From NCBI GenBank assembly GCA_016874795.1, contig VGTG01000004.1, positions 11,734 through 75,733 of the forward strand: a DNA stretch of 64,000 bases, in the 5' to 3' direction. Every line of letters begins with the position of its first letter. The first letter of the stretch is position 1. Source of the DNA: Deltaproteobacteria bacterium (GTDB lineage: Bacteria > Desulfobacterota > Binatia > UBA12015). Position numbers and translations under genes: made by a program. Positions 17,576-50,073 of this stretch are shown here, piece by piece. The notes below the pieces were generated by a model, which was not told the origin of the DNA, ran no database searches, and worked only from the letters and a program-made list of their open reading frames with translations.

Positions 17576-18691
17576 ATGGAATTCGACTCTCTTCCGTTGA
17601 TCTCCGCCGACAGCCACGTCGAGGAGCCGCGCGACCTCTGGGCGAAGAACCTGCCGCCGTCGCTGGTCGAGAATCTCGCGCCCGAGCTTCGCGATGGCCA
17701 CAGCCCTTCCGGCTCCTTCGCGGACAGGATCGGCGTCGAGAACTTGCAACGGATCGACGCGCTGACGCGCTCGGACGACGCCGTCGAGATGCAGTCGATG
17801 GCCGACCTCACGACCGATCCCGAGCGACGCCTCGCCGTCATGCGCCAGGACGGCATCGCGGGCGAGTGCATCTATCCGACGATGGGACTCTACGTCTGGA
17901 ACGCGGAGAGCCGCGAGGCCGGCGAGGCCGCGTGCCGGCTCTACAACGACTGGATCTTCGATCGGCTCGAGCGCCGATCTTCTCGCTTTCGCTGCGCTGC
18001 GATGATTCCTACGTGGGACGTCGGGGCCGCGATCGCCGAGATCCGTCGGACCGCGGCGATGGGGCTCGCTGCGGCGCTGCTGCCGCTCGTCGGGACGCCG
18101 GAGTACAACCACCGCGACTGGGAGTCGCTCTGGAACGAGCTCGACGAGATCGGAATGCCGGTCGTGATGCATCAGGGAACGGGTCACAGCATGCTTTTCT
18201 ATCGCGGCCCCGGGGCGGCCGTGGCGAACCTCCTCGCGACGCAGTCGATGGCTCCGCGGGGAGCGACGCTGCTCGCGACCTCGGGAGTGCTGGCCGCCCA
18301 TCCGGATCTGCACTTCGTATTCGTGGAGACCAACGCGAGCTGGCTCGCCTGGGCGATGAACACGGCCGACCACTACGACCGTGCCTTCCGTCAGTATCCG
18401 GGTTGGGTTCGACCCGAGCTGAGGGAGAAGCCAAGCGTTTACATGGCGCGCCAGATTCACGGCACGTTCCAGTACGACCCGGTCGCGGTTGCGAGCATCG
18501 CCCAGACGGGATCGGACCCGCTCTTGTGGGGTTCGGACTTCCCACATGCCGAGGGGACGTATCCACACTCGCGCGCCTCGGTGGCAGAGCAGTTCGCGGG
18601 CGTCGCCGAGGAGCAGGTGGCACGCATGGTCGGGGGCACCGCTGCGAAGCTCTTCGGGTTCGCGCCCGAGGTCTCGAACACACCCGTCTGA
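17576..18691 (+). CDS. Amidohydrolase-2 family (PF04909-like metal-dependent hydrolase)
   Basis: MEFDSLPLISADSHVEEP is a His-X-His metal motif, with a C-terminal WGSDFPH. It is paralogous to the 30364 gene. Confidence 0.8.
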   Translation: MEFDSLPLISADSHVEEPRDLWAKNLPPSLVENLAPELRDGHSPSGSFADRIGVENLQRIDALTRSDDAVEMQSMADLTTDPERRLAVMRQDGIAGECIYPTMGLYVWNAESREAGEAACRLYNDWIFDRLERRSSRFRCAAMIPTWDVGAAIAEIRRTAAMGLAAALLPLVGTPEYNHRDWESLWNELDEIGMPVVMHQGTGHSMLFYRGPGAAVANLLATQSMAPRGATLLATSGVLAAHPDLHFVFVETNASWLAWAMNTADHYDRAFRQYPGWVRPELREKPSVYMARQIHGTFQYDPVAVASIAQTGSDPLLWGSDFPHAEGTYPHSRASVAEQFAGVAEEQVARMVGGTAAKLFGFAPEVSNTPV

Positions 18692-19860
18692 TGCACGGCG
18701 CTGCTGCGATCGCAGGAATCGGCGAGTCCACCTACTACCGGCGGGGGGAGTCGCCGTACACCGAGTTCCAGCTTGCGTGCATCGCCATCCGGCGCGCCGT
18801 CGAGGATGCAGGTCTCGAGCTCGCCGACGTCGACGGCTTCGTGTCGTATCTGGATCAACGGAACAACCCCGTCCGCCTCGCCCGCGCTCTCGGCCTGAAG
18901 GAGCTTCGCTGGACGGGCATTCCGTGGGCCGGTGGCGGAAACAGCATGGCGGCGGCGGTGCAGGTCGCGGACGCCGCGGTCGCCGCAGGCTACGCGCGGC
19001 ACGTCGTCGTCTTCCGCGCGCTCGCGCAGGGGCAGTTCGGACGCTTCGGTCAGGCCGGAGGAAGCGGGGGCGGCGGGGGCGGCTACATGGGCGGGCCGTT
19101 CGCCTGGAACGGCACCTACGGCATTCTCACGCCCGCGCATCAGTGCGCCCTGCACGCGGCGCGATTCATGCACGATCACTCGATCTCGCAGGAGGCGCTC
19201 TGCGAGATCGCGCTCGCCTGCTACGCCAATGCGCAGCGGAACTCGCGTGCGCTGCGCTTCGGGAAGCCGCTCACGCGCGAGGAGTACCACGCCTCGCGCT
19301 GGATCGTGAAGCCGTTTCACCTCTACGACTGCTGTCCGGAGAACGACGGGGCTGCAGCCGCCGTCGTCACCACGAAGGAGCGCGCACGTGACCTGAGGCA
19401 TCGGCCGGCGGCGATCGTCGCGGCGGCTTCGGGGATCGGCCCGCCCTACGGCGTCTTCGACGGAGCGACGCTCGGGTCGGCTCATTACCGGCAGGTGGCG
19501 AAGCACCTCTGGGAGCACGCTGGCTGCGGGCCCGACGACGTCGACGTCGCCCAGTTCTACGAGAACTTCACCGGGACTGTCCTGATCGCGATGTGCGAGA
19601 TGGGCTTCTCCTCACCGGACGGGATCGAGGAGTTCGTCTCGGGCGGACGTCTCGTCGGCCCCGACGCCGCCCTTCCGTTCAACACGAGCGGAGGGAACAT
19701 CGGCGAGGCGTACATCCACGGTTTCGAGATGATCAACGAATCGGTGCGTCAGGTCCGCGGCGAATCCACGTGCCAGGTGAAGAGCGTGGAGCGCGCCCTC
19801 GTGGTTGCCGGGCCGGGCTACTGTCCCGGGAGCGCGGTGCTCCTCGGAGCGCCGCAATGA
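18691..19860 (+). CDS. Thiolase-like protein, SCP-x / nonspecific lipid-transfer-protein type
   Basis: About 390 aa with a thiolase fold. Start and stop overlap the neighbours (TGATG, ATGA). It is immediately followed by a DUF35 gene. Confidence 0.8.
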   Translation: MHGAAAIAGIGESTYYRRGESPYTEFQLACIAIRRAVEDAGLELADVDGFVSYLDQRNNPVRLARALGLKELRWTGIPWAGGGNSMAAAVQVADAAVAAGYARHVVVFRALAQGQFGRFGQAGGSGGGGGGYMGGPFAWNGTYGILTPAHQCALHAARFMHDHSISQEALCEIALACYANAQRNSRALRFGKPLTREEYHASRWIVKPFHLYDCCPENDGAAAAVVTTKERARDLRHRPAAIVAAASGIGPPYGVFDGATLGSAHYRQVAKHLWEHAGCGPDDVDVAQFYENFTGTVLIAMCEMGFSSPDGIEEFVSGGRLVGPDAALPFNTSGGNIGEAYIHGFEMINESVRQVRGESTCQVKSVERALVVAGPGYCPGSAVLLGAPQ

Positions 19861-20291
19861 AGCGCGTCCTCGGCGAGAGCTGGGCGGTGCCGAGCCTCGA
19901 TTCCCACAACCGCGACTTCTTCACGAAGGGCGTCCTGACGCTGCAACGGTGCACGCAGTGCAAGCACGTCCAGCATCCGCCCGAGGACGTCTGCGAGGCG
20001 TGTCAGGGTTTCGAGCTCGACGGCTTCGCGAGCGCCGGCGTCGGCCGGATCGAGAGCGTCGCCGTGGTGACGCAGTCGGTCCACCCGCTTCTCGCGGATC
20101 GCGTCCCGTACGCGATCGTCCTCGTTTCGGTCGAGGACGCGCCGGGCATCCTCGTTGCGGGCAATGTCGTCGGAAGCGACGCGGACGCGGTACGCATCGG
20201 TGATCGCGTCCGCGTCGTCTTCGAGGACGCGACCGACCCGAGGAGCGGGGAGAAGCTCGCGATCCCGCAGTGGGAAGTGATCGACGCATGA
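19857..20291 (+). CDS. DUF35 / OB-fold plus zinc-ribbon protein (thiolase-associated)
   Basis: CTQCKHVQHPPEDVCEAC is a C4 rubredoxin-like zinc ribbon followed by an OB fold. This is the characteristic partner of SCP-x thiolases. Confidence 0.75.
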   Translation: MKRVLGESWAVPSLDSHNRDFFTKGVLTLQRCTQCKHVQHPPEDVCEACQGFELDGFASAGVGRIESVAVVTQSVHPLLADRVPYAIVLVSVEDAPGILVAGNVVGSDADAVRIGDRVRVVFEDATDPRSGEKLAIPQWEVIDA

Positions 20292-21532
20292 AGGAGAAGA
20301 AGCGCGCCCTCGAAGGCATCCGCATCTGCGACTTCACGGGCCAGCTCGCCGGCGCCGGCGCCACGAAGTGGCTCGCGGCCTTCGGCGCGGACGTGATCCG
20401 CATCGAGGACCCCGTGAACCAGGGGGCCTGGGACATCCTTCGCATGATGCCGCCGTTTGTCGACGAGCGCCGCGGACCCGACTTCGGCGGTGGCTTCAAC
20501 AACCACAACGCCGAGAAGCGCGGCATCACGCTCAACCTGCGCACCGAGCGGGGCAAGGAGCTGCTCGCCGCCCTGGTCGCGCGCTCCGACGTCGTGACGG
20601 AGAACTTCGCCGCCGGCGTCCTCGAGCGCTGGGGCTTCGGATGGGAGTCTCTCCGGCGGATCAAGCCCGACATTGTCTACGTCTCGAACTGCGGCTTCGG
20701 CCACGTCGGACCGTACGCGTCGTTCAAGACGTGGGGGCCGATCGTGCAGGCCGTCTCGGGGCTCACGTTCACGTCGGGCCTGCCGGATCGGGAGCCCGCG
20801 GGATGGGGCTTCAGCTACATGGACCATACGGGCGGCTACTACATGGCGATGGCCGTCCTTCTGGCGTTGCTCCACCGCCAGCGCACGGGCGAGGGGCAAT
20901 GGGTCGACATGGCCTGCTGCGACGTCGGCTTGACGCTGAACGGTCCCGCGATCCTGGACTACACGGTGAACGGCCGGCCGATGCGTCGCGCGGGGCAGCC
21001 GAACGGGAACCGGAGCGATTGGCCGCGCATGGCGCCGCACGGGATCTACCGTGCTGCGGGCGAAGACGAGTGGGTCGCGATCGCTTGTCGAAGCGATGCC
21101 GACTGGACGGCGTGCGCCGGCGTGATCGATCGCGACTGGGCGCGCGAGACGCGCTGGTCGACGCTCGCGGGGCGCTTCGAAGCGCAGGACGAGCTCGACG
21201 AGAAGCTGACCGAGTGGTGTCGCGGGCGCGACAAGTTCGAAGTGCAGCGTCTCTTCCAGGCGGCCGGCATTCCCTCGGCAGCGGTGCAGAAGCCCGGCGA
21301 GCGGATCGATCGCGATCCGGCGACTGCCGAGATGGGACTGTGGCCGATCGTGCGCCACAGCAAGATGGGAGACGTGCGGGTCGACGGATTGCCCGTGCGC
21401 TTCTCCGAGACATCGTGGACGATCGCACGTGGCAGCCCGTGCGTGGGCGAGCATACGCAGGAGGTCCTCGGCGAGCTGCTCGGCCTCGGCGCCGAAGAGA
21501 TCGCCGACCTTCGCGCTCGAGGTGTCGTGTGA
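20288..21532 (+). CDS. Family III CoA-transferase (CaiB/BaiF/Frc family)
   Basis: GIRICDFTGQLAGAGATKWLAAFGADVIRIE is the N-terminal Rossmann signature, and the catalytic-Asp region is GWGFSYMDHTGG. Confidence 0.85.
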   Translation: MKEKKRALEGIRICDFTGQLAGAGATKWLAAFGADVIRIEDPVNQGAWDILRMMPPFVDERRGPDFGGGFNNHNAEKRGITLNLRTERGKELLAALVARSDVVTENFAAGVLERWGFGWESLRRIKPDIVYVSNCGFGHVGPYASFKTWGPIVQAVSGLTFTSGLPDREPAGWGFSYMDHTGGYYMAMAVLLALLHRQRTGEGQWVDMACCDVGLTLNGPAILDYTVNGRPMRRAGQPNGNRSDWPRMAPHGIYRAAGEDEWVAIACRSDADWTACAGVIDRDWARETRWSTLAGRFEAQDELDEKLTEWCRGRDKFEVQRLFQAAGIPSAAVQKPGERIDRDPATAEMGLWPIVRHSKMGDVRVDGLPVRFSETSWTIARGSPCVGEHTQEVLGELLGLGAEEIADLRARGVV

Positions 21533-22821
21533 GCGCGCTCACCGGCATCCGCGTGATCGAGCTCGCGCACGAGCGCATCGCGTTCGCGGGAAAGCTCCTC
21601 GGCGACATGGGCGCGGACGTCGTACTCGTCGAGCCTCCGGGCGGCGCGCCCATGCGCCTTCACGAGCCCTTCGTCGACGACGTCCCGGATTCCGAGCGAA
21701 GCCTGACCTGGTGGCACTACAACACGAGCAAGCGAGGCATCGTCCTCGACTGGCGGCGGGGCGACGGCCGCGAGGCGCTCGCGTCACTCCTCGCCGGCGC
21801 GGACGTCCTTCTCGAGGCGGAGGATCCAGGAGCTCTCGCAGCGGTCGGGCTCGGCGACGCCGTGCTGACCGGCTCGCTTTCGCGACTCATCCACGTTTCG
21901 CTGACGCCGTTCGGGCCGACCGGCGAGCGGCGAAACGAGCGAGCCACCGATCTCACGCTCCTCGCGGGCGGCGGTCCGGCGTGGAACTGCGGCTACGACG
22001 ACCACGATCTGCCGCCGATCCGCGGCGGCGGCGGCCATGGCTACGCGATCGGATGTCACTATGCAGCGATGTCGACTCTGACCGCGCTTCTCCACCGGGA
22101 GCTCGGCGGGCGAGGGCAACGGATCGACGTGTCGATGCACGCCGCCGCGAACGTGACGACGGAGATGGGCTCGTACAACTGGCTCGTCCAGAAGCGGACG
22201 GTCCAGCGCCAAACCGGTCGTCACGCGATGGATACGCCCTCGATGCCGTCGCAGGTCCGCTGCGCCGACGGACGCTACGTCAACACCGGCGTTCCGCCGC
22301 GCACGCCGCAGGAGTTCGGCAGGCTTCTCGCGTGGCTGCGCGCGCTCGGGCTCGAGGCGGAGCTGCCCGAGGCCGTCTTTCTCGCCCTCGGCGCGGAGCG
22401 CGAGCGCATCGACCTCTCCAAGATCGGGTTCGACGACGAGACGACAGCGATCTTTGCCGCGGGCCGCGAGGCGCTCGTTCTGATCGCGAGTCGCGTCTCT
22501 GCGGAGGACTTCTTTCTCGGCGCACAGAGGGCCGGGCTGCCCGCCGGTGTGATCTACTCTCCCGAGGAGGCATTCGAGGATCCGCACTTCCGCGCGCGCG
22601 GCATGCAGATCGAGGTCGAGCAGCCGCAGCTCGGTCGGACGGTGCGCTACCCGGGACCGCCCTATGCCTTCGAGAAGAGCAAGTGGGCGATCTCACGCCC
22701 CGCTCCGACACTCGGTCAGCACACCGAGGAAGTTCTCTCCGACGCCGGGCTCGACGTCGCCTCCCTCTCGCGGAGCGGCGCTCTGGGGCGGCCCGCTGCC
22801 GTGCAAGCGAAGGACGGCTGA
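21529..22821 (+). CDS. Family III CoA-transferase (second, adjacent paralog)
   Basis: GIRVIELAHERIAFAGKLLGDMGADVVLVEPP. The GTG start overlaps the upstream stop. Confidence 0.8.
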   Translation: MSALTGIRVIELAHERIAFAGKLLGDMGADVVLVEPPGGAPMRLHEPFVDDVPDSERSLTWWHYNTSKRGIVLDWRRGDGREALASLLAGADVLLEAEDPGALAAVGLGDAVLTGSLSRLIHVSLTPFGPTGERRNERATDLTLLAGGGPAWNCGYDDHDLPPIRGGGGHGYAIGCHYAAMSTLTALLHRELGGRGQRIDVSMHAAANVTTEMGSYNWLVQKRTVQRQTGRHAMDTPSMPSQVRCADGRYVNTGVPPRTPQEFGRLLAWLRALGLEAELPEAVFLALGAERERIDLSKIGFDDETTAIFAAGREALVLIASRVSAEDFFLGAQRAGLPAGVIYSPEEAFEDPHFRARGMQIEVEQPQLGRTVRYPGPPYAFEKSKWAISRPAPTLGQHTEEVLSDAGLDVASLSRSGALGRPAAVQAKDG

Positions 22822-22823
22822 GG

Positions 22824-23489: not shown

Positions 23490-23526
23490 TCCGCTTCGGC
23501 CGCGGGGGCCGAGTCCATCCGCGGCC

Positions 23527-24462: not shown

Positions 24463-24489
24463 TCGATCCTCCCCGCGCGAGATACGCGC

Positions 24490-25931: not shown

Positions 25932-26017
25932 CGTGCTCGCTCCTGCGGGTTGACACCAAAACTGCAGATCATGCATAATTGCAGTAACTGCAGTATTGCG
26001 CAAGGAGTCGCGAGCGA

Positions 26018-27097: not shown

Positions 27098-27106
27098 CGT
27101 GACGCC

Positions 27107-28297: not shown

Positions 28298-28489
28298 GTA
28301 GAGCACCTCGGGGCGGACGCGTTCCCGAACGAGGGAAGCCTCGCATCGCGATCGCTGCGAAAGATCACCTGCGGCGGAGCCGCTCGACGAAGAAGCTCGG
28401 CGGCTCCTGGACGTGACTGTCCGCCGAGATCAAGGGCAAGCTGTCGATATCCACGACTCCTCCTTCGCTCGCGTCCGGGAAATCCTGGC

Positions 28490-30329: not shown

Positions 30330-30363
30330 GCGCCGCGCGGAGGAGCGTCACGGAGGAACGTCC

Positions 30364-37155: not shown

Positions 37156-38372
37156 TTCCCCGTCCCGCTGCTGCGCGGCAGACCGAGGACACGCTCGGCG
37201 ATGACGTTGCGCTGGATCTCTGACGTGCCGCCGCCGATCGTCGCAGCGCGCATGATGAGGTAGCTGAGGGGGACGTTCCCGCCCTTCAGTGCGTGCGGGG
37301 ACCCGCGGACGAGCGCGGCGTACGGTCCGGCGAGATCCATCGCATAGTCGGCCATGGCCTGATCCAGCTCCGACGTGAGGAGCTTCGCGATCGAGACCTC
37401 GGGCCCCGGGGAAGCACCGCGGAGGCTCGCGGCGTTCGCGCGCGCGGCGAGGTTGCGCAGCGCCTCCACCCGGACGGCGAAGCGTGCGAGATGCTCGCGC
37501 ACGATCGGATCCTCCCACCGTGGCTTCTCGTCGACGGTGATCTCTCGAGCGAGGGCGACGAGGATCTCGAGTCGTCGCTCGATCCGACTCGTGCGGGAGA
37601 GTCCGGCGCGCTCGTAGCGCAGCGTGGAGTTCGCGATCCGCCAGCCGGCGTTCTGCTCGCCGACGAGGCACCGTCGCGGCACGCGGACCTCGTCGAAGAA
37701 CACCTCGTTGAACTCGGACCTGCCGCTGATCTGCCGCAGCGGGCGGACCGTGATTCCCGGGGTGCGCATGTCGACGAGGAAGCAGCTGAGCCCCTCGTGC
37801 TTCGGCGCGCTCGGATCGGTCCGCGCGAGGACGTAGCACCAGTCCGCGAGATGGGCCTTCGACGTCCAGACCTTCTGGCCCGTCAGGACGAATTCGTCTC
37901 CGTCGAGAACGGCGCGCGTGCGAATGGCCGCGAGATCGCTCCCGGCGCCCGGCTCGCTGAATCCCTGACACCAGACGTCGTCGCCGGAGAGGATCCTCGG
38001 CAGGAAGTGCCCCTTCTGCCAGTCACTTCCCCACTGGATGATCGTCGGCCCGATGTAGGCGATGGCGCTTCGGTTGATCGGGTCGGGCGCGCGCCGACGC
38101 GCCATCTCCGAATCGTAGATCATCTGCTGGACGAAGCCGGCATCGCGGCCGCCGTACTCCTTCGGCCAGGCGATGGCGACGAGCCCCGCTTCGAACAGCC
38201 GGCGTTGCCACTCGCGCTGGAACTCGACACGCGAAGCCTCGTCGCGTGGCCCCTCGTACTCGAGCGTTCCCCAGCCCGCGGGCAGGCACTCGTCGAGAAA
38301 TGCGCGTACCTCGGCGCGGAACGCCTCGTCCTCGTGTGTGAGGTGGAGCTCGAGATCCGCGCGCCGCTTCAC
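37152..38372 (-). CDS. Acyl-CoA dehydrogenase
   Basis: QGFSEPGAGSDLAAIRT, QKVWTS, IGGGTSEIQRNVIA. GTG start; both ends overlap neighbours by 4 nt. Confidence 0.8.
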   Translation of the reverse strand: MKRRADLELHLTHEDEAFRAEVRAFLDECLPAGWGTLEYEGPRDEASRVEFQREWQRRLFEAGLVAIAWPKEYGGRDAGFVQQMIYDSEMARRRAPDPINRSAIAYIGPTIIQWGSDWQKGHFLPRILSGDDVWCQGFSEPGAGSDLAAIRTRAVLDGDEFVLTGQKVWTSKAHLADWCYVLARTDPSAPKHEGLSCFLVDMRTPGITVRPLRQISGRSEFNEVFFDEVRVPRRCLVGEQNAGWRIANSTLRYERAGLSRTSRIERRLEILVALAREITVDEKPRWEDPIVREHLARFAVRVEALRNLAARANAASLRGASPGPEVSIAKLLTSELDQAMADYAMDLAGPYAALVRGSPHALKGGNVPLSYLIMRAATIGGGTSEIQRNVIAERVLGLPRSSGTGK

Positions 38373-40486
38373 GGTGGAAGATCCTCGAGCGTGCACTCGC
38401 CGAGCCGCGGCGGAGGCTGCAAGGGGATCGCCGGTCCTCCGACGAATCGCCATGCGAGCCCGACGAGCTTCGCTTCGGCGAGGTCGGGATCGGGATGGTC
38501 GACTCTCGGAAAGAAGCCGCGCGCCCGGAGGTGAGGATCCTCGACCAAGTCGGCGCCGCTCCAGGCCGGGCAGGCGCGCACGCCGGCGCGCTGGAGCGAG
38601 TGGAAGAGGTCATTGGCGGCGACTTTACGCGTGAGCTCATCGAGCGCGAATTCGATCGTACGGCGAGTCTCCCAGCGTCGGGACTCGTCGCTCCAGCTCG
38701 GCTCGCGGAGAATTTCCGGGTTGCCGAGCGCTTCGACGAGCGCTCTCCACTCGCTGTCGGACTGCACGGAGATCGCGATCCAGCGACCGTCGGCGGTCGG
38801 ATGGAAGCCGTGCGGAGCGTGCGGAGGACGATCGCTCCCGGCGGGTATCGTGCGCTTCTCGGCGAGCGACGCCTCGGCGATGAACTCTCCCACCTTGTCG
38901 GCGACGACCTCGGCCATGGAGAGATCGACGACGCCTCCGTGCCGGCGCCGGCCGAGAGCCCAGGCGGCGATCACGGTTGCCGCCGTGAGGGCAGAGAGCG
39001 GGTCGGCGATCACGGTTCCGACGTGAAGCGGAGCGCCGTCCGCGGCGCGCGTCAAGTGACTCAGCCCGCCGTAGGCGTGGACGTTGTTCGCGTAGGCGCG
39101 GTACCCGGCGAGCGGCCCGGACTGTCCGAAGCCCGAGATGCTGACGAAAAGGAGATCGCGACGCGCGGAGGCTTCCGCCGCGACGCCGAGGCGCGCCATC
39201 CGCTTCGATCCGAAGTTCTCGAGCACGACGTCGCTCCAGCACGCGAGCCGGGGCGCTGCCTCGGGCTCCGCCTCGACGTCGACGGCGATGCTCCGCTTCG
39301 AGTGGTTCGATACGGCGAAGTACGCACCTCGTTCCTTCCCGGGAACACCGTGCGCGAACGGGCCGGTCCGACGATAGAGATCGAGCCGCGCGAGGTCTTC
39401 GAAGCGAACGACTTGCGCACCCATCGCGCCGAGCAGGGCACCGGCGATCGGTGCGGCGAGAACGTGAGTGAACTCCGCGACGCGGAGCCGACGCAGACCT
39501 GCGCCGTTGGCATCCGTGTCGCCGACCTGGCTCGCGCTCGGTGTCCACGTGTACGGACGGCCGGGAAGGCGGGCAGCGACGTCGCCGAGCTTCGCGCTCT
39601 CGAGGAAGCCGCGCGATGCGAGCTGTGGAGAGGCGAGGAGATCGTCCGGAGTGTTGACGGGCGTCGCCGGAACCCCGTGCGCTTGGAGTCTCTCGGCGCA
39701 GTCGTGGATGCCGAACGCCGCGGTCCAGCTCTCGATCTCGCGATTGATCGCCTCCGCGTTCGTTGCGCGGGCCTCGCGGCCTTCGAAACCGCGCGTCCAG
39801 CCGGGAGTTCCGAGAGCGCGAACGAGCCCTGCCCATTGATGGTCGTCGGGTGCGGTGATCCGAACGAATCCGTTGCGGCAGCGAAAGAGGCCGGAGGGTG
39901 CGACGTAACGGCCGCTACCTGCGCGTCCGGGGCACGCGTAGATCGCATGCGCGCACTCCGGCAAGGCGCCGAGCATCGCCACGGCTTCCTGCGCGGACAC
40001 GTCGACGTGCACGGGGCGGCCGGTCTCGCGTCTCCGGTCGAGCCCGTGGAGCGCCGCGAGCGCCGCGACCTGCCCGGTCGCGAGCAGCCCCTGGAAGCCC
40101 GGCAGGAGGGAAGGGCGTCCGCCGTCGCGGGGTGCGATCGTCGCAGCGAGACCGCCGGCGGCCGAGGAGACGAGCTCGGAGCCGAGGTACTTCGAGTACG
40201 GGCCCGTCAGGCCGAACGCCGTCGTCGTCACCCAGACGCCCTCGTCGTGGCGCTCGACGAGACGGACGTACTTCGCGAGGTCGCGAGGCAGACCGGCGTC
40301 GTCGACGACGCGATCGCAGACGATGATGTCGGCGCCGGCGAGAAGTCCCGAACCGAGCGAAGCTTCCCGTGTCGTCTTGTCGCGATCGAGGAGGGCGCTC
40401 AGGATCGAGATCCGACCGCCCGAAGAGGTCGCGAGGTTCGGCGCGTAGGCCGGCGGGACACTCGCCGCGGGCACGAGCTTCGTCAC
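38369..40486 (-). CDS. Tandem-fused family III CoA-transferase (two CaiB/BaiF-like modules in one 705-aa polypeptide)
   Basis: The first module has GADIIVCD... and the second starts at about residue 330 with LRVAEFTHVLAAPIAGALLGAMGAQVVRFE (the Rossmann N-motif repeated). The exact start is uncertain. Confidence 0.75.
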   Translation of the reverse strand: MTKLVPAASVPPAYAPNLATSSGGRISILSALLDRDKTTREASLGSGLLAGADIIVCDRVVDDAGLPRDLAKYVRLVERHDEGVWVTTTAFGLTGPYSKYLGSELVSSAAGGLAATIAPRDGGRPSLLPGFQGLLATGQVAALAALHGLDRRRETGRPVHVDVSAQEAVAMLGALPECAHAIYACPGRAGSGRYVAPSGLFRCRNGFVRITAPDDHQWAGLVRALGTPGWTRGFEGREARATNAEAINREIESWTAAFGIHDCAERLQAHGVPATPVNTPDDLLASPQLASRGFLESAKLGDVAARLPGRPYTWTPSASQVGDTDANGAGLRRLRVAEFTHVLAAPIAGALLGAMGAQVVRFEDLARLDLYRRTGPFAHGVPGKERGAYFAVSNHSKRSIAVDVEAEPEAAPRLACWSDVVLENFGSKRMARLGVAAEASARRDLLFVSISGFGQSGPLAGYRAYANNVHAYGGLSHLTRAADGAPLHVGTVIADPLSALTAATVIAAWALGRRRHGGVVDLSMAEVVADKVGEFIAEASLAEKRTIPAGSDRPPHAPHGFHPTADGRWIAISVQSDSEWRALVEALGNPEILREPSWSDESRRWETRRTIEFALDELTRKVAANDLFHSLQRAGVRACPAWSGADLVEDPHLRARGFFPRVDHPDPDLAEAKLVGLAWRFVGGPAIPLQPPPRLGECTLEDLPP

Positions 40487-40606
40487 GGACGCGCCGAGGC
40501 TTCGAAGGATCGCCGTGCAGCTCGCGCCGGCGATGCCGGATCCGAGCTCGACGACCCGGATTCCGCTCAGCGCCGCGAAGGAAGGAGTGTCCGTGGAACC
40601 CTCGGT

Positions 40607-41257: not shown

Positions 41258-41312
41258 GAGGCGATGCTACAGGATTTGACTCATTGTCTCAACGACGACT
41301 ACGCTGCCCGGC

Positions 41313-42218: not shown

Positions 42219-42235
42219 GGACGAGCTCCGCCTGC

Positions 42236-43282: not shown

Positions 43283-43377
43283 GCGCTCCTCCTCCGGGCG
43301 AGGCGAAGCGTACCGGACGGCTTGCGTTCGTGCGAATCAAAAGTACAATTTCAGTCTGATTGTCCGATCCCGGCTCG

Positions 43378-44748
43378 ATGGAGGGACGACGCGTGTCCGA
43401 CAGCAACGGAGTACCCGAGCAGTGGCGGCTGGGCGACGCGTTCGTGCCCAAGGGCCGCTACGTCGATCGGGAGTTCTTGCAGCTCGAGTACGACCGGCTC
43501 TTCCCCAAGGTCTGGCAGATGGCGTGCCGCGAGGAGGAGATCCCGGACGTCGGCTCCTATCTCGAGTACAAGATCGGTGATCAATCGATCATCGTCGTTC
43601 GCTCTGGAGCGGATCGAATCCAGGCGTTTCACAACAGCTGCATCCATCGCGGCAGCAGGCTGATCCAGCATGCCGGCTGTGCCACCGAGTTCCGGTGTCC
43701 GTTTCACGGCTGGCGCTATTCCCTGGATGGGAAGTGCACGTTCATCCACTTCGAAGAAGAGTTCGACCACCGCCCCGACGAGTTCAAGCGGCTCCGCGAC
43801 GCGCGATGCGAGCGGTGGGGCGGCTGGGTCTTCGTCAACATGGATCGCGACGCCGAGCCGCTCCTCGACTGGCTCGATCCCTTGCCGAAAGTCCTCGGGC
43901 CCTTCGAGCCCGAGCGAATGCGGTATGCGTGGCACAAGCGCACGATCCTCCCTGCGAACTGGAAGACGGCGATCGATGCGTTCATCGAGGGCTATCACAC
44001 TCCCGCGACGCATCCGCAGTACATTCGACTCTCCGTGAACGGAACACGTGACGCGAGCCCGTGCTCGGTCGACGAGTACGCGTTCGCGCCCTACAACCCG
44101 ACGTTCACCTTTCGTAATTGCTCGCGGTTCGTCTTCGGCGTGCGCGAGGACGCACCCGTCGCCGGCGCGGCGGCGCGCGGCAACCCGGCGCAGATCCGAG
44201 CGCTCATCGCCTACCAGCTCGACCAGCTCCGCGCGCTCAACAACGAGCACGATCTGCGAGCCGCGGAGGAGCTCCTTCGGATCGACGCGGGCGATACTCC
44301 CATCTACCAGGTGTTCGGAGAGCTCCGTCGCAAGTTCGCCGAGGAGGCCGGCGTCGCCCCTCCGGATCTCACTCTCCAGCAGATTGCCGCCGGGCAAGGC
44401 GACTGGCACTTCCATCCGACGATGGTCAACCTCGTCGAGCCCGGCAGCATCCTCGGCTACCGCTCGCTACCGAACGGGGACGATCCGGACTCCTGCATCT
44501 TCGACGTCTGGTCCTTGTACTTCTGGCCCGAGGGCGGCGCGCCGAAGGTCGAGCTCGAGTTCGTCGAGCGCTGGAAGGACGGCGACTGGGGCGAAGTCCT
44601 GACGCAGGATTTCCGCAACATGGGGGCCGTCCAGCAAGGGATGCACTCGCTCGGGTTCGAGGGCCACTGGCTCAACCGCAAGCAGGAGATGTCGATCCAC
44701 AACGCGCACCGCATCGCGGATCGGTTTCTCTTCGGTGTGGATGCTTGA
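43378..44748 (+). CDS. Rieske non-heme iron oxygenase, alpha (catalytic) subunit
   Basis: Rieske ligands CIHRG...(17 aa)...CPFHGW, then a mononuclear-iron catalytic domain. A relatively AT-richer spacer lies upstream (aatcaaaagtacaatttcag). The ATG start at 43378 was preferred over the TTG at 43360. Confidence 0.8.
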   Translation: MEGRRVSDSNGVPEQWRLGDAFVPKGRYVDREFLQLEYDRLFPKVWQMACREEEIPDVGSYLEYKIGDQSIIVVRSGADRIQAFHNSCIHRGSRLIQHAGCATEFRCPFHGWRYSLDGKCTFIHFEEEFDHRPDEFKRLRDARCERWGGWVFVNMDRDAEPLLDWLDPLPKVLGPFEPERMRYAWHKRTILPANWKTAIDAFIEGYHTPATHPQYIRLSVNGTRDASPCSVDEYAFAPYNPTFTFRNCSRFVFGVREDAPVAGAAARGNPAQIRALIAYQLDQLRALNNEHDLRAAEELLRIDAGDTPIYQVFGELRRKFAEEAGVAPPDLTLQQIAAGQGDWHFHPTMVNLVEPGSILGYRSLPNGDDPDSCIFDVWSLYFWPEGGAPKVELEFVERWKDGDWGEVLTQDFRNMGAVQQGMHSLGFEGHWLNRKQEMSIHNAHRIADRFLFGVDA

Positions 44749-45479
44749 GCCGCGTGGCCCTCGTCACCGGCGGCTCTCGCGGGATCGGTCTCGCGATCGC
44801 TCGCCGGCTCGTGGAAGACGGACTCACGGTCTGCGTCGTGGACGTCAACGAGAAGGCGCTCGCTCGCCTGGAAGGCGCGGGACTCGATGCGGAACGTTTT
44901 CAATCGCGGCACGTGTCCGTCCTCGATCGTGACGCGATGGGGCGCGTGATGGAGGAGCTCGTCGCGCACCACGGCAGCCTCGACGTGCTCGTCAACAACG
45001 CGGGAATGACGCGCGCCGGGACGCTCCTCACGCAGACGGACGAGGATTGGGACCTCGTGATCGACACGAACCTGAAGGGACCGTTCGTCTGCAGCCAGCT
45101 CGCCGCACGACACATGAAAGCCGGTGGCGGCGGGGCGATCGTCAACATCGGCTCCGTCTCGGCGCACGGGATCCGGAGCGGTCCGCCGGCATACGCGGCG
45201 GCCAAGGCGGGCCTCGAGGGTCTGACCCGCAACGCGGCGATCGAGCTCGGCCGCGACGGAATCCGCGTCAACCTCATCGTCCTCGGCACGATCGAGTCGG
45301 AGTGGCTTCTGCAGCGAAAGACGGCCGACGAGCTCGAGGAAATGCGATCGAGCACGCTGACGGGGCGACTCGGGAGGCCGGAGGATGTCGCCTCGGTCGT
45401 CTCGTTTCTCGTGTCCGAGAATGCAGGCCACGTCACGGGCCAGCTCTTCTCCGTTTCCGGAGGGCAATGGCTGCCTTGA
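44744..45479 (+). CDS. Short-chain dehydrogenase/reductase (SDR)
   Basis: ALVTGGSRGIGLAIA, NNAG, S-x12-YAAAK. The start is TTG 44744 or GTG 44756. Confidence 0.8.
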
Positions 45480-45500
45480 GCGGCCGGGCGAGTGAAACCG

Positions 45501-46412
45501 ATGAGCGACTCGAAGAAGTATGGAGCCGACCTCGAAGTCGACGAGGACCCCGAGTCCTGGGTCCTCTACGAGACGCTCGAAGGCGGGATCGCACGCGTCA
45601 CGCTGAATCGCCCGCATCGGAAGAACGCGATCCTTTCTCCGGACATGCACGTGATTCTCGCGGAGCGTCTCGCACGAGCGAACGACGACGACGAGGTCAA
45701 GGTGATCGTGCTCGCGGGCGCGGGGAGCGACTTCTGCTCCGGCGACGACGTGCGCCGCATGCCCGTCGAGCGGGCAGGTCTCAAGAAGGGAAAGAAGCTG
45801 CCGCAGACGGCGCGCATCCGGAACGCAGTGCGGCTGGACGAGAACCTGCGAAATCTTCTCTTCACCTCGAAGACCGTCATCGCGGCTTGCCAGGGCGCCG
45901 TCATCGGCGCGGGCTTGAACCTGGCGCTCGCCGCCGATCTCGTCGTCGCGGCGGACACGGCGTACTTCGCGCGTCCGCAGGCACGCATCGGATTCGCCGG
46001 GTTCAGCACGGCCCTGCCCCTCGTGCTCCTCAAGATGGGTGTCAACCGCGGCTACGAGGCGATGATCACCGGCCGGAAGGTGAAGGCAGCGGAGCTGAAG
46101 GACTGGGGCGTCGTGAACTCCGTGGTCCCCGAGGCGGATCTCGCCGGTGAGGCTCTTCGCTACGCGAAGGCGATCGCGAGCCACTCGGCGGACGGCCTCA
46201 TGATCGGCAAGCACGGCCTGCACATGTTCTGGGAGCTGATGGGCATGTCGACGTACGGCGCCTTCGTGAAGATGGCTCACCCGCTCTTCACGAACCTCGT
46301 CTGGCGCGATGACGAGTTCAACTTCCTCCGCGAGCGAAACGGGCGCGGCGCCAAGGAGGCGCTCGCCGAGCTGAACAAGCGGTGGAAGGACCTGGGCTTC
46401 GACGAAGAGTGA
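45501..46412 (+). CDS. Enoyl-CoA hydratase/isomerase family
   Basis: ARVTLNRPHRKNA...CQGAVIGAGLNLALAADL is crotonase. Confidence 0.8.
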   Translation: MSDSKKYGADLEVDEDPESWVLYETLEGGIARVTLNRPHRKNAILSPDMHVILAERLARANDDDEVKVIVLAGAGSDFCSGDDVRRMPVERAGLKKGKKLPQTARIRNAVRLDENLRNLLFTSKTVIAACQGAVIGAGLNLALAADLVVAADTAYFARPQARIGFAGFSTALPLVLLKMGVNRGYEAMITGRKVKAAELKDWGVVNSVVPEADLAGEALRYAKAIASHSADGLMIGKHGLHMFWELMGMSTYGAFVKMAHPLFTNLVWRDDEFNFLRERNGRGAKEALAELNKRWKDLGFDEE

Positions 46413-46416
46413 TCTC

Positions 46417-47364
46417 GTGAACGCCGAATATGCCCGGCTCGAGCCGCGCACGGTGACCACCGGGCTCGAGTTCCCCGAGGGCCCGGTCGCATTGCGCGAC
46501 GGCAGCGTGCTGCTGAGCGAGGTCCGCGCCGGCCGGATCACGCGAGTCGACCCGGATGGAGCGAAGCGAACCTGCGCCGAAGCGGGCGGCGGGCCGAACG
46601 GTGCCGCCCTCGGACCTGACGGCGATCTCTACGTTTGCAACAACGGGGGCTCGCAGTGGGCGAAGCGCGCTTGGCCGTATGCGGATCCCGGAGCGATCGA
46701 GCTCCTCCTGCCCCTCGGTGCCGAGCCGGGCGCGTGCATTCAGCGTGTGGACGTCGACTCGGGGCGGGTCGAGAGCGTCTACGCCGCCTGTGAGGGAGAG
46801 CCTCTTCGCCGGCCCAACGACATCGTGTTCGACGCCGAGGGCGGCTTCTGGTTCACCGACAGCGGCGGCGGGACCTCGCGCGTCCGACACGCGACCGGTG
46901 TTCTCTACGCGACGCCGGACGGCTCTCGCATCGAGGAGGTGATCCACCCGCTCGAGATGCCGAACGGCATCGGACTGAGCCCCGACGGCGAGACGCTCCA
47001 CGTCGTGGAGACGCGCACGCGAAGGTTGTGGGCGTGCTCTCTCGCAGGTCCGGGCCGAGTGAAATCCAGGCGCTTGCTCGCCACGATCCCGTCGGGCGGT
47101 CCCCTGAACGTCGGCGGCTGCGATTCTCTCTGCGTCGATGCACGCGGGAACGTTCTCGTCGCGACTCTCGGCAGCGGCGGCGTGACCGTCGTCTCGCCAG
47201 CGGGAGAGGTCGTGGCGCACGTGCCTCTCGAGGATCCGATGACCACGAACGCGTGCTTCGGGGGGCCGGACCTCCGGACGTTGTTCGTCACGGCGGGCGC
47301 GACGGGCGCACTCGTCGCGTTCGACGGCTGGCCGGTCCCCGGTCTGCCGCTCGCCTTCGGGTGA
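46417..47364 (+). CDS. SMP-30/gluconolactonase/LRE-like beta-propeller hydrolase
   Basis: LEFPEGPV..., NDIVFDAEGGFWFTD, PNGIGLSPDGETL are six-bladed propeller signatures. GTG start. Confidence 0.75.
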   Translation: MNAEYARLEPRTVTTGLEFPEGPVALRDGSVLLSEVRAGRITRVDPDGAKRTCAEAGGGPNGAALGPDGDLYVCNNGGSQWAKRAWPYADPGAIELLLPLGAEPGACIQRVDVDSGRVESVYAACEGEPLRRPNDIVFDAEGGFWFTDSGGGTSRVRHATGVLYATPDGSRIEEVIHPLEMPNGIGLSPDGETLHVVETRTRRLWACSLAGPGRVKSRRLLATIPSGGPLNVGGCDSLCVDARGNVLVATLGSGGVTVVSPAGEVVAHVPLEDPMTTNACFGGPDLRTLFVTAGATGALVAFDGWPVPGLPLAFG

Positions 47365-47368
47365 ATCG

Positions 47369-48499
47369 ATGGATTTCGGATTCGACGAGCAGCAGAAGGC
47401 ACTCGCCGCAAGTGTTCGTGACGTGATCGATTCGAGATTCGGGATGGCCTACGTCCGCGGGATGCTCGACGATCCGCGGGGATTCTCGCTCGAGTTCTGG
47501 GCGGAGGCGGCGAAGCTCGGCTGGCTCGGACTTCTCGTCGAGGAGAGATACGGCGGGCTCGGGCTCGGTCCCCTCGAGATGGCCGCGGTGCAGCAGGAGC
47601 TCGGGCGAGGCGTGGTCCCCGGGCCGTACCTCGCGTCGGCGGTGCTCGCGAGCGTCGCTCTTCAGCGGTACGGCTCGGAGCGACAGAAGAAGCGCTGGCT
47701 CCCGTCGCTGGCGGCAGGCGACGAGATCGCCACTGTGGTTTTCCCGGAGGCTCATCGCGCGTCGGAGGAGGGCTTCGTCGGCTTCACCGCGGAGCGTCCC
47801 TCGCGAACCGCGTTTCGCGTGACGGGCGAGCAGCGCTTCGTCCTCGACGCGCACGTGGCGGATCTCGCCGTCGTGCCCGCGATCGCGGAGGAGGGAGTCA
47901 CACTCTTTCTGGTCGAGACATGCTCTCCGGGCGTAACCACGCAGCCGATCCGCACGATCGACGACACGCGGCGTCTGGCGACGATGCGTTTCGATGGGAT
48001 CGAGGTCGAAGCGAATCAGATTCTGGGAGAAGCGGGCGCGGGTCTCGTGCTCTTGGAGGCGGTCGCGGACGTCGGTCGCGTGGCGTTGTCCGCCGAGATG
48101 GTGGGCGGCGCCGAGCGAGCGCTCGAGATGTGCATCGATTACGCGCGCGTCCGCGAGCAATTCGGGAGGCCGATAGGCAGCTTCCAGGCGATCCAGCACA
48201 AATGCGCCGACATGCTCGTCCGCGTCGAAGGGGCTCGCGCGATGACTCTTGCGGCAGCAACTTCACTCGCACACGGAGACGCGGACGCGACTTCCGACGC
48301 GGGCATCGCAAAGTCGTGGTGCGGGGAGGCGTACCGGATGGTGACGACGGAGGGTGTGCAAATCCACGGCGGTCTCGGCTTCACATGGGATCTCGACATG
48401 CACCTGTTCTACAAGCGCGCCAAGTCGAGCGAGACGTCCCTTGGAGATGCGCGCTTCCATCGTGCACGCCTGGCCGAGCGGGCACTCGGGGAGAGCTGA
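47369..48499 (+). CDS. Acyl-CoA dehydrogenase
   Basis: MDFGFDEQQ..., FGRPIGSFQAIQHKCADM, IHGGLGFTWD. Confidence 0.85.
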   Translation: MDFGFDEQQKALAASVRDVIDSRFGMAYVRGMLDDPRGFSLEFWAEAAKLGWLGLLVEERYGGLGLGPLEMAAVQQELGRGVVPGPYLASAVLASVALQRYGSERQKKRWLPSLAAGDEIATVVFPEAHRASEEGFVGFTAERPSRTAFRVTGEQRFVLDAHVADLAVVPAIAEEGVTLFLVETCSPGVTTQPIRTIDDTRRLATMRFDGIEVEANQILGEAGAGLVLLEAVADVGRVALSAEMVGGAERALEMCIDYARVREQFGRPIGSFQAIQHKCADMLVRVEGARAMTLAAATSLAHGDADATSDAGIAKSWCGEAYRMVTTEGVQIHGGLGFTWDLDMHLFYKRAKSSETSLGDARFHRARLAERALGES

Positions 48500-48919
48500 A
48501 TGGCGAAGCGTGCGATCGAGCCGGGGCTCCTACGTCTCCCGGACGGCGAGGGTCGTGAGCTTCGGCTCTGCGCGAATCGTTGTGACGGCTGCGGCGTCGT
48601 GTTCCATCCGCCGCGCCCCGTCTGTCTCGCTTGTCATGGACGAGCCATGAGCGATGCACCTCTCGAGGGGGCGGGTACCCTGTACGCGTTCACGCGTGTG
48701 GCGATGGCGATGCGTCCCGGAATGCGCACGGAGCGCGGCTACTGGGTCGCGCACGTGGACCTCGACGGCGGACCGCGCGTGCAGGGTCTTCTCGCTCCCG
48801 ACGTTGCCGAGCCGCGCATCGGCATGCGGCTGCGACTCGGGATCGAGACCGTCCGCGTCGAGGAGAGCGGGGAGGAGATCGTGGTGCACCACTTTGCCGC
48901 GGACGAGGCTCGAGCGTGA
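48500..48919 (+). CDS. DUF35 / OB-fold plus zinc-ribbon protein (thiolase-associated)
   Basis: CANRCDGCGVVFHPPRPVCLAC zinc ribbon followed by an OB fold. The ATG directly abuts the upstream stop. Confidence 0.75.
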   Translation: MAKRAIEPGLLRLPDGEGRELRLCANRCDGCGVVFHPPRPVCLACHGRAMSDAPLEGAGTLYAFTRVAMAMRPGMRTERGYWVAHVDLDGGPRVQGLLAPDVAEPRIGMRLRLGIETVRVEESGEEIVVHHFAADEARA

Positions 48920-50073
48920 AGACCGAGAACATCGCTCTCCTCGGCACGGCGATGACGCGTTTCGCCGATCATCGCGACCGCACGCTCTTCGAGCTCGCCA
49001 CCGAGGCGGGGCTTGGCACTCTGACGGATGCCGGAATCGACCTGCGCGACGTGGGTGAAGCGTACGTCGGCTCGATGATGGCGCCGCCGATGCTCGGGGT
49101 GCGGATCTTGAAGCAGCTCGGGCTGACGGGGCTGCCCGTCGTGACGATCGAGGCGGCTTCCGCATCGGGACTCGTGGCTCTGCGCGAAGCGTCGTTCGCG
49201 GTCTCGAGCGGCCGTTGCGAGGTCGCGCTCGCCTTGACCTACGAGCACGCGATGCAGCGCCTGCCCGGGAGCGGAGGCATGACGCCGGGCTACGAGACGT
49301 TGATGGCGTCCCCCGCCTCGTTCGCGCTCTGGGCGAGCCGCCGGATGCACGAGCGCGGAACCAAGCCCGAGCACCTGGCGAAGCTCGCCGCCAAGAACTG
49401 GAACGCGGCGCGCGAGAACCCGCTCGCATATCACCGCGCCGATCACGTCGTCACGCCGCAGGAAGTCCTGGCCTCGCCGAGCGTCGCTTCGCCGTTGACG
49501 CAGATGATGGGAGCGCCGATGGGCGGAGGGGCTGCGGCAGTTCTTCTCGCGAGCCCGGACCGCGTACGGCGCCGGCGTCCCGGCGAGCCGCTCGTGCGCG
49601 TGCTCTCGTCGTCCCTGGTGACCGAGTCCTGGGATCCCGAATGGATCGCACTCGGACCCGCGGTCGGACCGCCCGGAATGACCGCCGACGCCGCCCGCCG
49701 GGCGTTCGAAGCCGCCGGTGTCGGTCCGGAGGACGTGGACGTCGCCTACGTGCACGACTCGTGGATCAACGAGGAGCTCGAGTACTACGAGCAGCTCGGC
49801 CTCTGCGCGCCGGGCGAGGCCGAGAAGCTCGCGGAGGAAGGCACCACCGCGCTCGGCGGAAGAATCCCCGTGAACGTCGACGGTGGACTCGTCGCGCGCG
49901 GACACCCGATCGGCCCGACGGGCCTCGCCCAGGTGCACGAGATCGGGCTACAGCTCCGCGGGCGAGCCGGCAGGCGTCAAGTCGAAGGAGCGACGACCGC
50001 GCTGGCGCAGCTCGTCGGCGGAGGCAGCTCGGCGATCGTCTGTTTGTTTCAGCGCGACGGTCGCGTCGCGTGA
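48916..50073 (+). CDS. Thiolase-like protein, SCP-x / lipid-transfer type
   Basis: About 385 aa with a thiolase fold (IEAASASGLVAL, HPIGPTGL). The GTG start overlaps the DUF35 stop. Confidence 0.8.
   Translation: MKTENIALLGTAMTRFADHRDRTLFELATEAGLGTLTDAGIDLRDVGEAYVGSMMAPPMLGVRILKQLGLTGLPVVTIEAASASGLVALREASFAVSSGRCEVALALTYEHAMQRLPGSGGMTPGYETLMASPASFALWASRRMHERGTKPEHLAKLAAKNWNAARENPLAYHRADHVVTPQEVLASPSVASPLTQMMGAPMGGGAAAVLLASPDRVRRRRPGEPLVRVLSSSLVTESWDPEWIALGPAVGPPGMTADAARRAFEAAGVGPEDVDVAYVHDSWINEELEYYEQLGLCAPGEAEKLAEEGTTALGGRIPVNVDGGLVARGHPIGPTGLAQVHEIGLQLRGRAGRRQVEGATTALAQLVGGGSSAIVCLFQRDGRVA

Follow-up and report, generated by a model that had tools for sequence, protein, structure and literature searches.

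Complexes of a thiolase-fold protein with a DUF35 protein carry out difficult C-C cleavages on hindered acyl-CoAs (steroid side chains, benzylsuccinate, ibuprofen), and they are of interest as biocatalysts. In the aldolase Ltp2, Tyr294 of the Y-D-H-F motif serves as the base, Tyr344 serves as the acid, and His296 lies in the oxyanion hole, where its replacement causes only a 14-fold loss of catalytic efficiency (Rolfe et al. 2025, PMC12329534). The aldolases of the Ltp2/Sal group lack the thiolase nucleophile (PMC12329534). The DUF35-associated thiolase subclass is defined by the motifs CxS, HDxF and GHx; the His of HDxF is essential, and changing it to Tyr nearly abolishes thiolysis (2026 study, PMC12960953). 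Here, we analyzed a 64,000-nucleotide stretch of DNA from Deltaproteobacteria bacterium (contig VGTG01000004.1, positions 11,734 to 75,733), hereafter the window, whose first letter is position 1. As far as sequence can tell, the window probably holds two independent heteromeric thiolase-fold and DUF35 C-C lyase modules, an Ltp2-type retro-aldolase (module 1) and a Ser-thiolase retro-Claisen enzyme (module 2).

Layout and independence of the two modules

An earlier note on this DNA had placed two thiolase/DUF35 modules, in opposite gene orders, at 18691-20291 and 48500-50073, and the open reading frames (ORFs) and Pfam domains were found exactly there. Gene positions were taken from a codon-bias gene call and ORF lists, domains from Pfam, subfamilies from NCBIfam and nearest structures from a PDB search. 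The components of the two modules are as follows:

18691..19860, plus strand: THL1, Ltp2-like thiolase-fold protein of 389 amino acids (Pfam Thiolase_C_1, 1.3e-20)
19857..20291, plus strand: DUF35-1, zinc ribbon and OB fold, 144 amino acids (zf-ChsH2 1.5e-08, OB_ChsH2_C 7.5e-12)
48500..48919, plus strand: DUF35-2, zinc ribbon and OB fold, partner of THL2, 139 amino acids (zf-ChsH2 3.3e-08, OB_ChsH2_C 1.7e-11)
48916..50073, plus strand: THL2, thiolase-fold protein of ACAT/SCP2/BbsB type, 385 amino acids (Thiolase_C_1 7.7e-35, Thiolase_N 1.3e-10)
49159..49161, plus strand: codon TCC for Ser82 of THL2, the site of the thiolase nucleophilic Cys

THL1 and THL2 share 25% identity, and DUF35-1 and DUF35-2 share 26%. 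This indicates that the modules are independent, as the earlier note had held; together with their different clades in the tree described below, it rules out a recent duplication of one module. Among all ORFs scanned in the window, there was no third thiolase-like or DUF35 gene.

Read from the DNA, the THL1/DUF35-1 junction is ATGA and the DUF35-2/THL2 junction is GTGA, each a 4-nucleotide stop/start overlap. The stop of the amidohydrolase gene before THL1 and the THL1 start share TGATG, and the TGA stop of the acyl-CoA dehydrogenase (ACAD) gene before DUF35-2 directly abuts the DUF35-2 ATG. Both pairs had been called translationally coupled: the overlaps stand at both junctions, and coupling is what they suggest.

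In two JGI contigs (L009/L010) that are identical to the window around 48500-48919, the source call starts DUF35-2 late (90 amino acids, OB fold only) and adds a 25-amino-acid ORF, with the zinc ribbon lost. The call of 139 amino acids, from the ATG straight after the ACAD stop, agrees with the orthologs in L001-L003.

Catalytic residues and partners of module 1

In the PDB, THL1 is closest to Thermomonospora curvata Ltp2 from the ChsH2-DUF35 complex (6OK1_A, E value 1.4e-71), followed by 4U4E and then the bile-acid aldolase Sal (9MYR). We found Gly at the nucleophile site of THL1, as in Ltp2, Sal and 4U4E, and the surrounding GGGNSMAAA contains no Cys. Tyr290 (Y-E-N-F) and Tyr341 (GEAYIHG) align to Tyr294 and Tyr344 of Ltp2. 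When THL1 was compared with its 120 closest homologs (66-89% identity to THL1), the Gly and both tyrosines were invariant in 121/121 sequences. Asn292, at the position of Ltp2 His296, is invariant in the THL1 clade. The best PDB match of DUF35-1 is ChsH2(DUF35) (6OK1_B, 7.9e-13), and its CxxC...CxxC ribbon is intact. A neighbour-joining tree places the YENF clade as the sister of Ltp2, within a Gly/Tyr "aldolase" group that also holds Sal and 4U4E.

Judged by these residues, module 1 most probably works like Ltp2, through non-covalent Tyr/Tyr retro-aldol cleavage of a hindered 3-hydroxyacyl-CoA, and it represents a distinct sister clade of Ltp2, either an additional member of the Ltp2-type aldolases or a variant of them. 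Several observations weigh against this assignment. THL1 scores under the NCBIfam Ltp2 cut-off (354.6 vs 469 bits; PRK07855, lipid-transfer protein), and it has Asn where Ltp2 has His296. DUF35-1 lacks a fused MaoC hydratase, and the called genes of the window include no MaoC domain. The neighbour-joining tree carries no bootstrap.

The THL1-then-DUF35 order with a 4-nucleotide overlap recurs in other loci (L007, L008, L091 and L092/L093), including a Binatia metagenome-assembled genome (MAG), and a Proteobacteria contig (L094) has the same order with a 12-nucleotide gap. The whole unit THL1-DUF35-CoA-transferase-CoA-transferase, with 4-nucleotide overlaps throughout, recurs in three other contigs (L091, L092/L093), where P450, SnoaL and Amidohydro_2 genes lie nearby. 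In the window, module 1 is surrounded by the following genes:

16654..17436, minus strand: enoyl-CoA hydratase (crotonase), divergent from module 1 (Pfam ECH_1 1.5e-27)
17543..18691, plus strand: Amidohydrolase_2 family protein (Pfam Amidohydro_2 1.1e-23)
20288..21532, plus strand: family III CoA-transferase, first of a tandem, with a 4-nucleotide overlap with DUF35-1 (Pfam CoA_transf_3 1.8e-96)
21529..22821, plus strand: family III CoA-transferase, second of the tandem (Pfam CoA_transf_3 1.8e-63; conserved synteny)

In the mechanism that we propose, THL1 and DUF35-1 would form a complex like Ltp2-ChsH2(DUF35). With Tyr290 as the base and Tyr341 as the acid, this complex would cleave a hindered 3-hydroxyacyl-CoA without passing through a covalent intermediate, yielding a short acyl-CoA and a ketone or aldehyde. 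CoA would probably be loaded onto the acid substrate by the two co-transcribed family III CoA-transferases, and the crotonase is a candidate supplier of the 3-hydroxyacyl-CoA.

The nearest named relatives of THL1 are "Deltaproteobacteria" and Binatia MAGs (86-87% identity, one from the same sample), and Gemmatimonadota MAGs share 78-79%. A Delftia acidovorans plasmid carries a gene for a YENF protein 48% identical to THL1, flanked by those for a CaiB-type CoA-transferase and an OB-fold protein. This locus adjoins a Rieske oxygenase, its reductase and IS1071.

A serine at the nucleophile site of module 2

The best PDB matches of THL2 were all true thiolases: SCP2-thiolase type 1 (6HSJ, 2.6e-54), archaeal ACAT (7YVY, 1.8e-45), BbsB (7PXP_C, 5e-45) and archaeal ACAT (6ESQ, 7.7e-38). 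Their nucleophilic Cys (NNCSTG, EAACASG, QSACSAG) aligned in each case to Ser82 of THL2 (EAASASG). HDCF/HDAF aligns to H280-D-S-W, and GHP is kept as G329-H330-P331. Thus THL2 keeps two of the three thiolase motifs, fails the CxS motif (S82-A-S) and has neither aldolase tyrosine. The check for a catalytic Cys proposed by the earlier note found the nucleophilic Cys absent from both proteins, with Gly in THL1 and Ser in THL2; the replacement of Cys by Ser in module 2 had not been anticipated.

To see how far this Ser extends, we used the closest database homologs of THL2 and 80 THL2-clade loci from species-representative genomes. The 80 loci are a sample among the matches listed, not a census, and the genome scan listing does not include the closest THL2 relatives (Gemmatimonadota-labelled) seen in the protein database search. 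Ser occupies the Cys site in 120/120 homologs and in 80/80 listed loci, the latter labelled Deltaproteobacteria/Myxococcota, Acidimicrobiia, Binatia, Thermodesulfobacteriota, Alpha-/Gammaproteobacteria, Anaerolineae, Spirochaetales and others. Among 50%-identity cluster representatives, the 18 nearest to THL2 have Ser and 110 more distant ones have Cys. The homologous Ser codons of the 80 loci are TCG (57), TCC (16), TCT (4) and TCA (3), and never TGY. The use of all four synonymous TCN codons argues for selection for Ser and, with Ser in 200/200 relatives, rules out sequencing error, decay or a pseudogene behind Ser82.

The other two motifs are conserved as well. The HDxF His is present in 120/121 sequences of the close-homolog alignment and in 80/80 listed loci, and the Asp is invariant in the close homologs. 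The form of HDxF in most of the THL2 clade is HDAF. The GHx His (His330) is invariant in close homologs and listed loci.

THL2 fails the equivalog models of BbsB (NF053628, 158.7 vs 750) and archaeal ACAT (NF053570, 204.2 vs 600). In the neighbour-joining tree, the Ser sequences are nearly monophyletic; they branch from within the Cys thiolases and stand separate from the clades of BbsB, SCP2 and the archaeal enzymes. DUF35-2 best matches the archaeal DUF35 6ESQ_E (8.3e-09), with a weak NCBIfam BbsA match (6.5e-10). Judged by its motifs, THL2 is a DUF35-associated thiolase variant that fails one defining feature, the CxS Cys. Lacking that Cys, THL2 is not to be filed as a BbsAB or ACAT member. 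The earlier expectation of non-canonical C-C cleaving complexes, to be checked by phylogeny, is broadly supported, and THL1 of module 1 carries the Ltp2 catalytic signature and groups with Ltp2. Module 2 differs from what was expected: THL2 does not group with the aldolases and is not an Ltp2/Sal-type aldolase.

In at least 70/80 listed loci, the gene immediately preceding the thiolase gene on the same strand encodes a DUF35 protein, and three of the remainder are at contig edges. The DUF35-2/THL2-type order comes with 4-nucleotide overlaps in L001-L003 and a 9-nucleotide gap in L004-L006, and DUF35-thiolase fusions with the same N-to-C order exist among Cys-type relatives. Since order and tight spacing recur in the orthologous loci of both modules, the pairing is not due to chance. 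The pattern that the earlier note had named as speaking against it, intact Cys-His-Cys triads with no DUF35 co-occurrence, is contradicted on both counts: neither protein has the Cys, and DUF35 is conserved in the orthologous clusters.

THL2 closes a same-strand run of genes, followed by a convergent block:

43393..44748, plus strand: Rieske oxygenase alpha subunit, opening the run that ends in module 2 (Pfam Rieske, Ring_hydroxyl_A)
44754..45479, plus strand: short-chain dehydrogenase (SDR), candidate 3-hydroxyacyl-CoA dehydrogenase (Pfam adh_short_C2 1.3e-57)
45492..46412, plus strand: enoyl-CoA hydratase (crotonase) (Pfam ECH_1 9.3e-40)
46417..47364, plus strand: SMP-30/gluconolactonase-like (SGL) protein, conserved in L001-L003 (Pfam SGL 2.6e-52)
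47369..48499, plus strand: ACAD, PimD-small/IpdE2-like (Pfam; NCBIfam pimD_small 1.1e-60 and IpdE2 7.5e-53, both under cut-off)
48500..50073, plus strand: DUF35-2 and THL2, as above
50084..53238, minus strand: convergent P450 - SDR - ACAD block (Pfam; synteny kept in L001-L003)

The close orthologs (L001-L003) keep only the core SGL-ACAD-DUF35-THL2 and the convergent block. The Rieske oxygenase, whose best NCBIfam match is GbcA-like and far under cut-off, is absent from the close orthologous cluster L001 and so is not part of the conserved core of module 2.

The preferred mechanism for module 2 is a complex like BbsAB or archaeal ACAT, in which Ser stands in place of the acyl-carrying Cys and both histidines are kept. 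The upstream ACAD, hydratase and SDR would supply the steps of a cycle resembling beta-oxidation, in the manner of the bbs operon, and THL2 would perform the last, retro-Claisen step. His330 would activate Ser82, an acyl-O-enzyme would form, and CoA would resolve it. The Cys89Ser variant of Zoogloea thiolase and the Ser-His-Asp ketosynthase DpsC are reportedly two precedents for Ser as an acyl acceptor.

Three points weigh against this mechanism. First, across the 80 listed Ser loci the neighbours are Amidohydro_2 (34), ACAD (29), AMP-ligase (25), SDR (21) and crotonases (4); hydratases are thus rare, and a classical beta-oxidation context is not general for the Ser clade. Second, the HDCF Cys, a general acid, has no counterpart in THL2, although the same holds for BbsB with its HDAF. 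Third, we found no characterised precedent for a Ser nucleophile among DUF35-paired or SCP2-type thiolases in the searchable literature, which covers subscription journals thinly and makes this a weak absence.

We therefore weighed other roles for module 2. THL2/DUF35-2 could also be a retro-aldolase that breaks down a 3-hydroxyacyl-CoA without a covalent step, with acid/base roles for His280 and for Ser82 or another residue. The absence of the nucleophilic Cys is a loss common to Ltp2 and Sal, hydratase and SDR genes are not consistently near Ser-clade members, and three loci (L060, L077, L079) have an aldolase-type module next to a Ser-type one. However, known aldolases have Gly rather than Ser, and Tyr in place of the HDxF His (YDHF, YDCY, YDSF), whereas THL2 keeps His280, has His330 at the equivalent of Ltp2 Tyr344 and lacks Cys304 of Sal. 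Its position in the tree is far from the aldolase group, and an SDR gene lies in its own gene run. We consider a retro-aldolase role for THL2 rather unlikely.

It seems quite improbable that module 2 runs in the condensing or acyl-transfer direction, like archaeal ACAT/HMGS/DUF35 or PhlABC, with Ser82 carrying the acyl group to a non-CoA acceptor. There is no partner like HMG-CoA synthase (HMGS) or PhlA in the window or the sampled loci, the surrounding genes are catabolic, and PhlC-type enzymes have lost HDxF while THL2 keeps an HDxF-like motif. In its favour are the closeness of DUF35-2 to archaeal DUF35 and the Amidohydro_2 neighbours, a family that includes phenolic-acid decarboxylases. 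PhlC/MucB-type enzymes also show that the scaffold can be repurposed for acyl transfer (PMC12960953).

A missing catalytic Cys usually marks a pseudo-enzyme, and THL2 might be a catalytically dead thiolase-fold scaffold or substrate-binding subunit, with a neighbouring enzyme doing the chemistry. An inactive subunit of this superfamily is known from the ACAT/HMGS-DUF35 complex of Pseudomonas fluorescens, where the HMGS unit has no catalytic tetrad and makes no HMG-CoA (PMC12960953). A dead site is expected to drift, but Ser82 is invariant with synonymous change only, and His280, Asp281, His330 and the glycine-rich active-site loops are conserved over 200 sequences of about 45-100% identity (the HDxF His in 120/121 of the close-homolog alignment). 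This makes a dead scaffold very improbable. That both proteins are ordinary degradative thiolases with incidental DUF35 neighbours, as the database names "acetyl-CoA acetyltransferase" or "thiolase family protein" would have it, is scarcely credible, since the residue analysis, with neither a nucleophilic nor an acid/base Cys in either protein, already refutes it and DUF35 adjacency is conserved across phyla.

Returning to the Ser-thiolase reading, we tentatively suggest that the DUF35-then-Ser-thiolase pair could be an uncharacterised, phylum-spanning variant of the thiolase superfamily, performing acyl-O-serine C-C cleavage or a different reaction, maybe linked to Amidohydro_2. The clade would span Gemmatimonadota-like bacteria, Myxococcota/"Deltaproteobacteria", Acidimicrobiia, Binatia, Anaerolineae, Alpha- and Gammaproteobacteria, and others. 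The nearest named relatives of THL2 are Gemmatimonadota MAGs (80-82% identity), and JGI metagenome contigs from samples 3300020193 and 3300020214 encode an identical protein. No close relative of THL2 was found in the plasmid collection (41% identity or less).

Genomic setting and comparison with known systems

Clade, catalytic residues, DUF35 type and operon partners all differ between the two modules, and each module is conserved independently of the other. Both points support two distinct C-C steps, in line with the earlier suggestion of two separate cleavages. In 3/80 listed loci (L060, L077 and L079, from different phyla, with YDHF in L079), aldolase-type and Ser-type thiolase-like/DUF35 modules lie within a few kb of each other, which hints that the two can serve one pathway.

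The window has two Amidohydro_2 (PF04909) genes (17543-18691 and 30364-31683), and such genes recur beside both module types in other loci (L007, L012-L048, L091-L094), with the family present in 34/80 listed Ser-clade loci and most THL1-type loci. The amidohydrolase might be the missing hydratase, a lactonase or a decarboxylase of these pathways. We also found that the phylogenetic signals of the two modules disagree, with nearest relatives in "Deltaproteobacteria"/Binatia for module 1 vs Gemmatimonadota for module 2. Mislabelled bins, or a horizontal transfer of one of the modules, may explain this.

The window has a G+C content of ~68%. Its first 13.8 kb hold housekeeping genes, among them PanBC, PanD, SmpB and a phosphate transporter, and from ~16.6 kb to 58 kb there is a dense island of acyl-CoA catabolism genes, roughly 45 kb in size. 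It contains four P450s, seven ACADs, four SDRs, two luciferase-like monooxygenases and one Rieske oxygenase, together with four crotonases, two AMP-ligases, three CoA-transferase III genes and one fused double. The island also holds two Amidohydro_2 genes, the SGL lactonase-like protein, TetR regulators and an E1/lipoyl/E2 set. This gene content suggests a bulky alicyclic or branched acyl-CoA as the substrate of either module.

A search of the window (Pfam of called genes, NCBIfam) found no MaoC hydratase, HMGS, bss/bbs equivalog or steroid-ring gene, and no HMGS or KAS-III-like gene was present. Assignment to a steroid pathway is unsupported, with no MaoC and no KstD/Ksh/Hsa-type genes seen in the window. 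The steroid C17 side chain, benzylsuccinate and archaeal HMG-CoA synthase, named earlier as substrates or systems, have no matching genes in the window and are analogies only.

Left of the island lie DUF1214, Sulfotransfer_3, PhoU_div and PHO4 genes (7113-9503, 12174-13784), and the same four also flank the THL1-type/DUF35 pair of L008, in a 5.8-Mb genome. These common flanks suggest that module 1 has long resided in this chromosomal neighbourhood and is not simply cargo of the island.

Further features were observed around and within the island. A serine-recombinase ORF without a resolvase domain (14136-15332, minus strand) runs into the 3' end of a tmRNA gene (13878-14233, tag ADNFYHLQAA; SmpB at 9538-10053), and a Mutator transposase fragment follows at 15393-16148 (profile positions 145-370 of 379). 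The segment 13878-16148, immediately to the left of the catabolic island, resembles the degraded end of an element that had inserted at ssrA. To delimit a genomic island, we looked for a copy of the tmRNA 3' end as an att repeat and found none. A 123-nucleotide direct repeat (73% identity) lies at 16232-16354, in the spacer beside the transposase fragment, and at 51119-51241, within the 5' portion of the P450 gene at 50084-51265. A rearrangement probably left it behind as a trace of a second P450 copy.

A 705-amino-acid protein with two CoA_transf_3 domains (38369-40486, minus strand) is followed by two ACAD genes (37152-38372 and 36058-37155, minus strand) with overlapping stops and starts. 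The layout of 36058-40486 resembles that of the heteromeric ACADs acting on bulky acyl-CoAs. At 53318-56333 there are a fused alpha-beta E1 (674 amino acids), a free lipoyl protein of 79 amino acids and a separate E2 catalytic domain, a split layout kept in L001 (15664-18673). The window E2 is preceded by a 128-nucleotide gap and has 208 amino acids vs 251 in L001, which may reflect a different start or a lesion. Outside the island, a fused PanB-PanC of 596 amino acids (4891-6681) joins ketopantoate hydroxymethyltransferase and pantoate-beta-alanine ligase, and a BrnT toxin and HTH antitoxin pair (59337-59935, minus strand) lies near the right edge of the island.

Taken together, these modules present an Ltp2-like YENF aldolase clade outside any steroid context, hard-wired to a CoA-transferase pair and widespread in uncultured freshwater and soil phyla; it occurs also on catabolic plasmids of cultured Betaproteobacteria. 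They also present a large conserved clade of DUF35-paired thiolases with Ser at the nucleophile site. If the Ser enzymes are active, the assumed indispensability of Cys in this branch of the superfamily would be challenged, and the enzymes would be misannotated across databases as "acetyl-CoA acetyltransferase". The signatures G / YENF / Y and S / HDxF / GHP distinguish the two types by sequence.

Compared with Ltp2-ChsH2(DUF35) (T. curvata 6OK1, M. tuberculosis Ltp2), THL1 likewise has the Gly site, both catalytic tyrosines and the DCC motif, and DUF35-1 is most like ChsH2-DUF35. However, Ltp2 has Y-D-H-F and THL1 has Y-E-N-F, with Asn replacing the oxyanion His296. In the Ltp2 system, DUF35 is the C-terminal domain of the MaoC hydratase ChsH2 in an igr-like operon (ChsE1-E2, ChsH1-H2), whereas DUF35-1 is a free-standing protein of 144 amino acids. 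Unlike those of Ltp2, the operon partners of THL1 are two family III CoA-transferases, with no steroid catabolic genes. CtSal-CtShy(DUF35), the bile-acid aldolase of Comamonas testosteroni (9MYR), is also a thiolase fold without the nucleophilic Cys paired with DUF35, and CtSal and THL1 fall in a common broad aldolase group in the tree. Sal uses Tyr302 and Cys304 (YDCY); neither THL1, with YENF and a second Tyr, nor THL2, with HDSW, has this motif.

The BbsAB benzoylsuccinyl-CoA thiolase of Geobacter metallireducens (7PXP) has the DUF35-then-thiolase order of module 2, and BbsB and THL2 both have an HDAF-type motif without the acid/base Cys, and GHP. The bbs operon comprises ACAD, hydratase, SDR and family III CoA-transferase genes. 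Module 2 similarly has ACAD, hydratase and SDR genes alongside, with family III CoA-transferases elsewhere in the island. BbsB has a nucleophilic Cys whereas THL2 has Ser, they belong to separate tree clades, and the window has no bss/bbs genes. The archaeal ACAT/DUF35 complex belongs to the same thiolase subclass as THL2 (CxS / HDxF / GHx architecture), and DUF35-2 is closest to archaeal DUF35. Module 2 differs from it in having no HMG-CoA synthase partner, in the change of Cys to Ser and in its catabolic context. The Friedel-Crafts acylase PhlABC / MucABC has an HMGS-like PhlA partner and has lost HDxF in PhlC, and module 2 shares neither feature.

In ibuprofen degradation by Sphingomonas Ibu-2 and Rhizorhabdus wittichii MPO218, the thiolase-like IpfD and its small partner IpfE remove propionyl-CoA from a CoA-activated, Rieske-oxygenated substrate (PMC9195938). 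The pIBU218 match is a different locus with a YDHF protein. The likeness is limited to pathway logic: a Rieske oxygenase and CoA-activating enzymes are found near both modules and near the Delftia YENF homolog.

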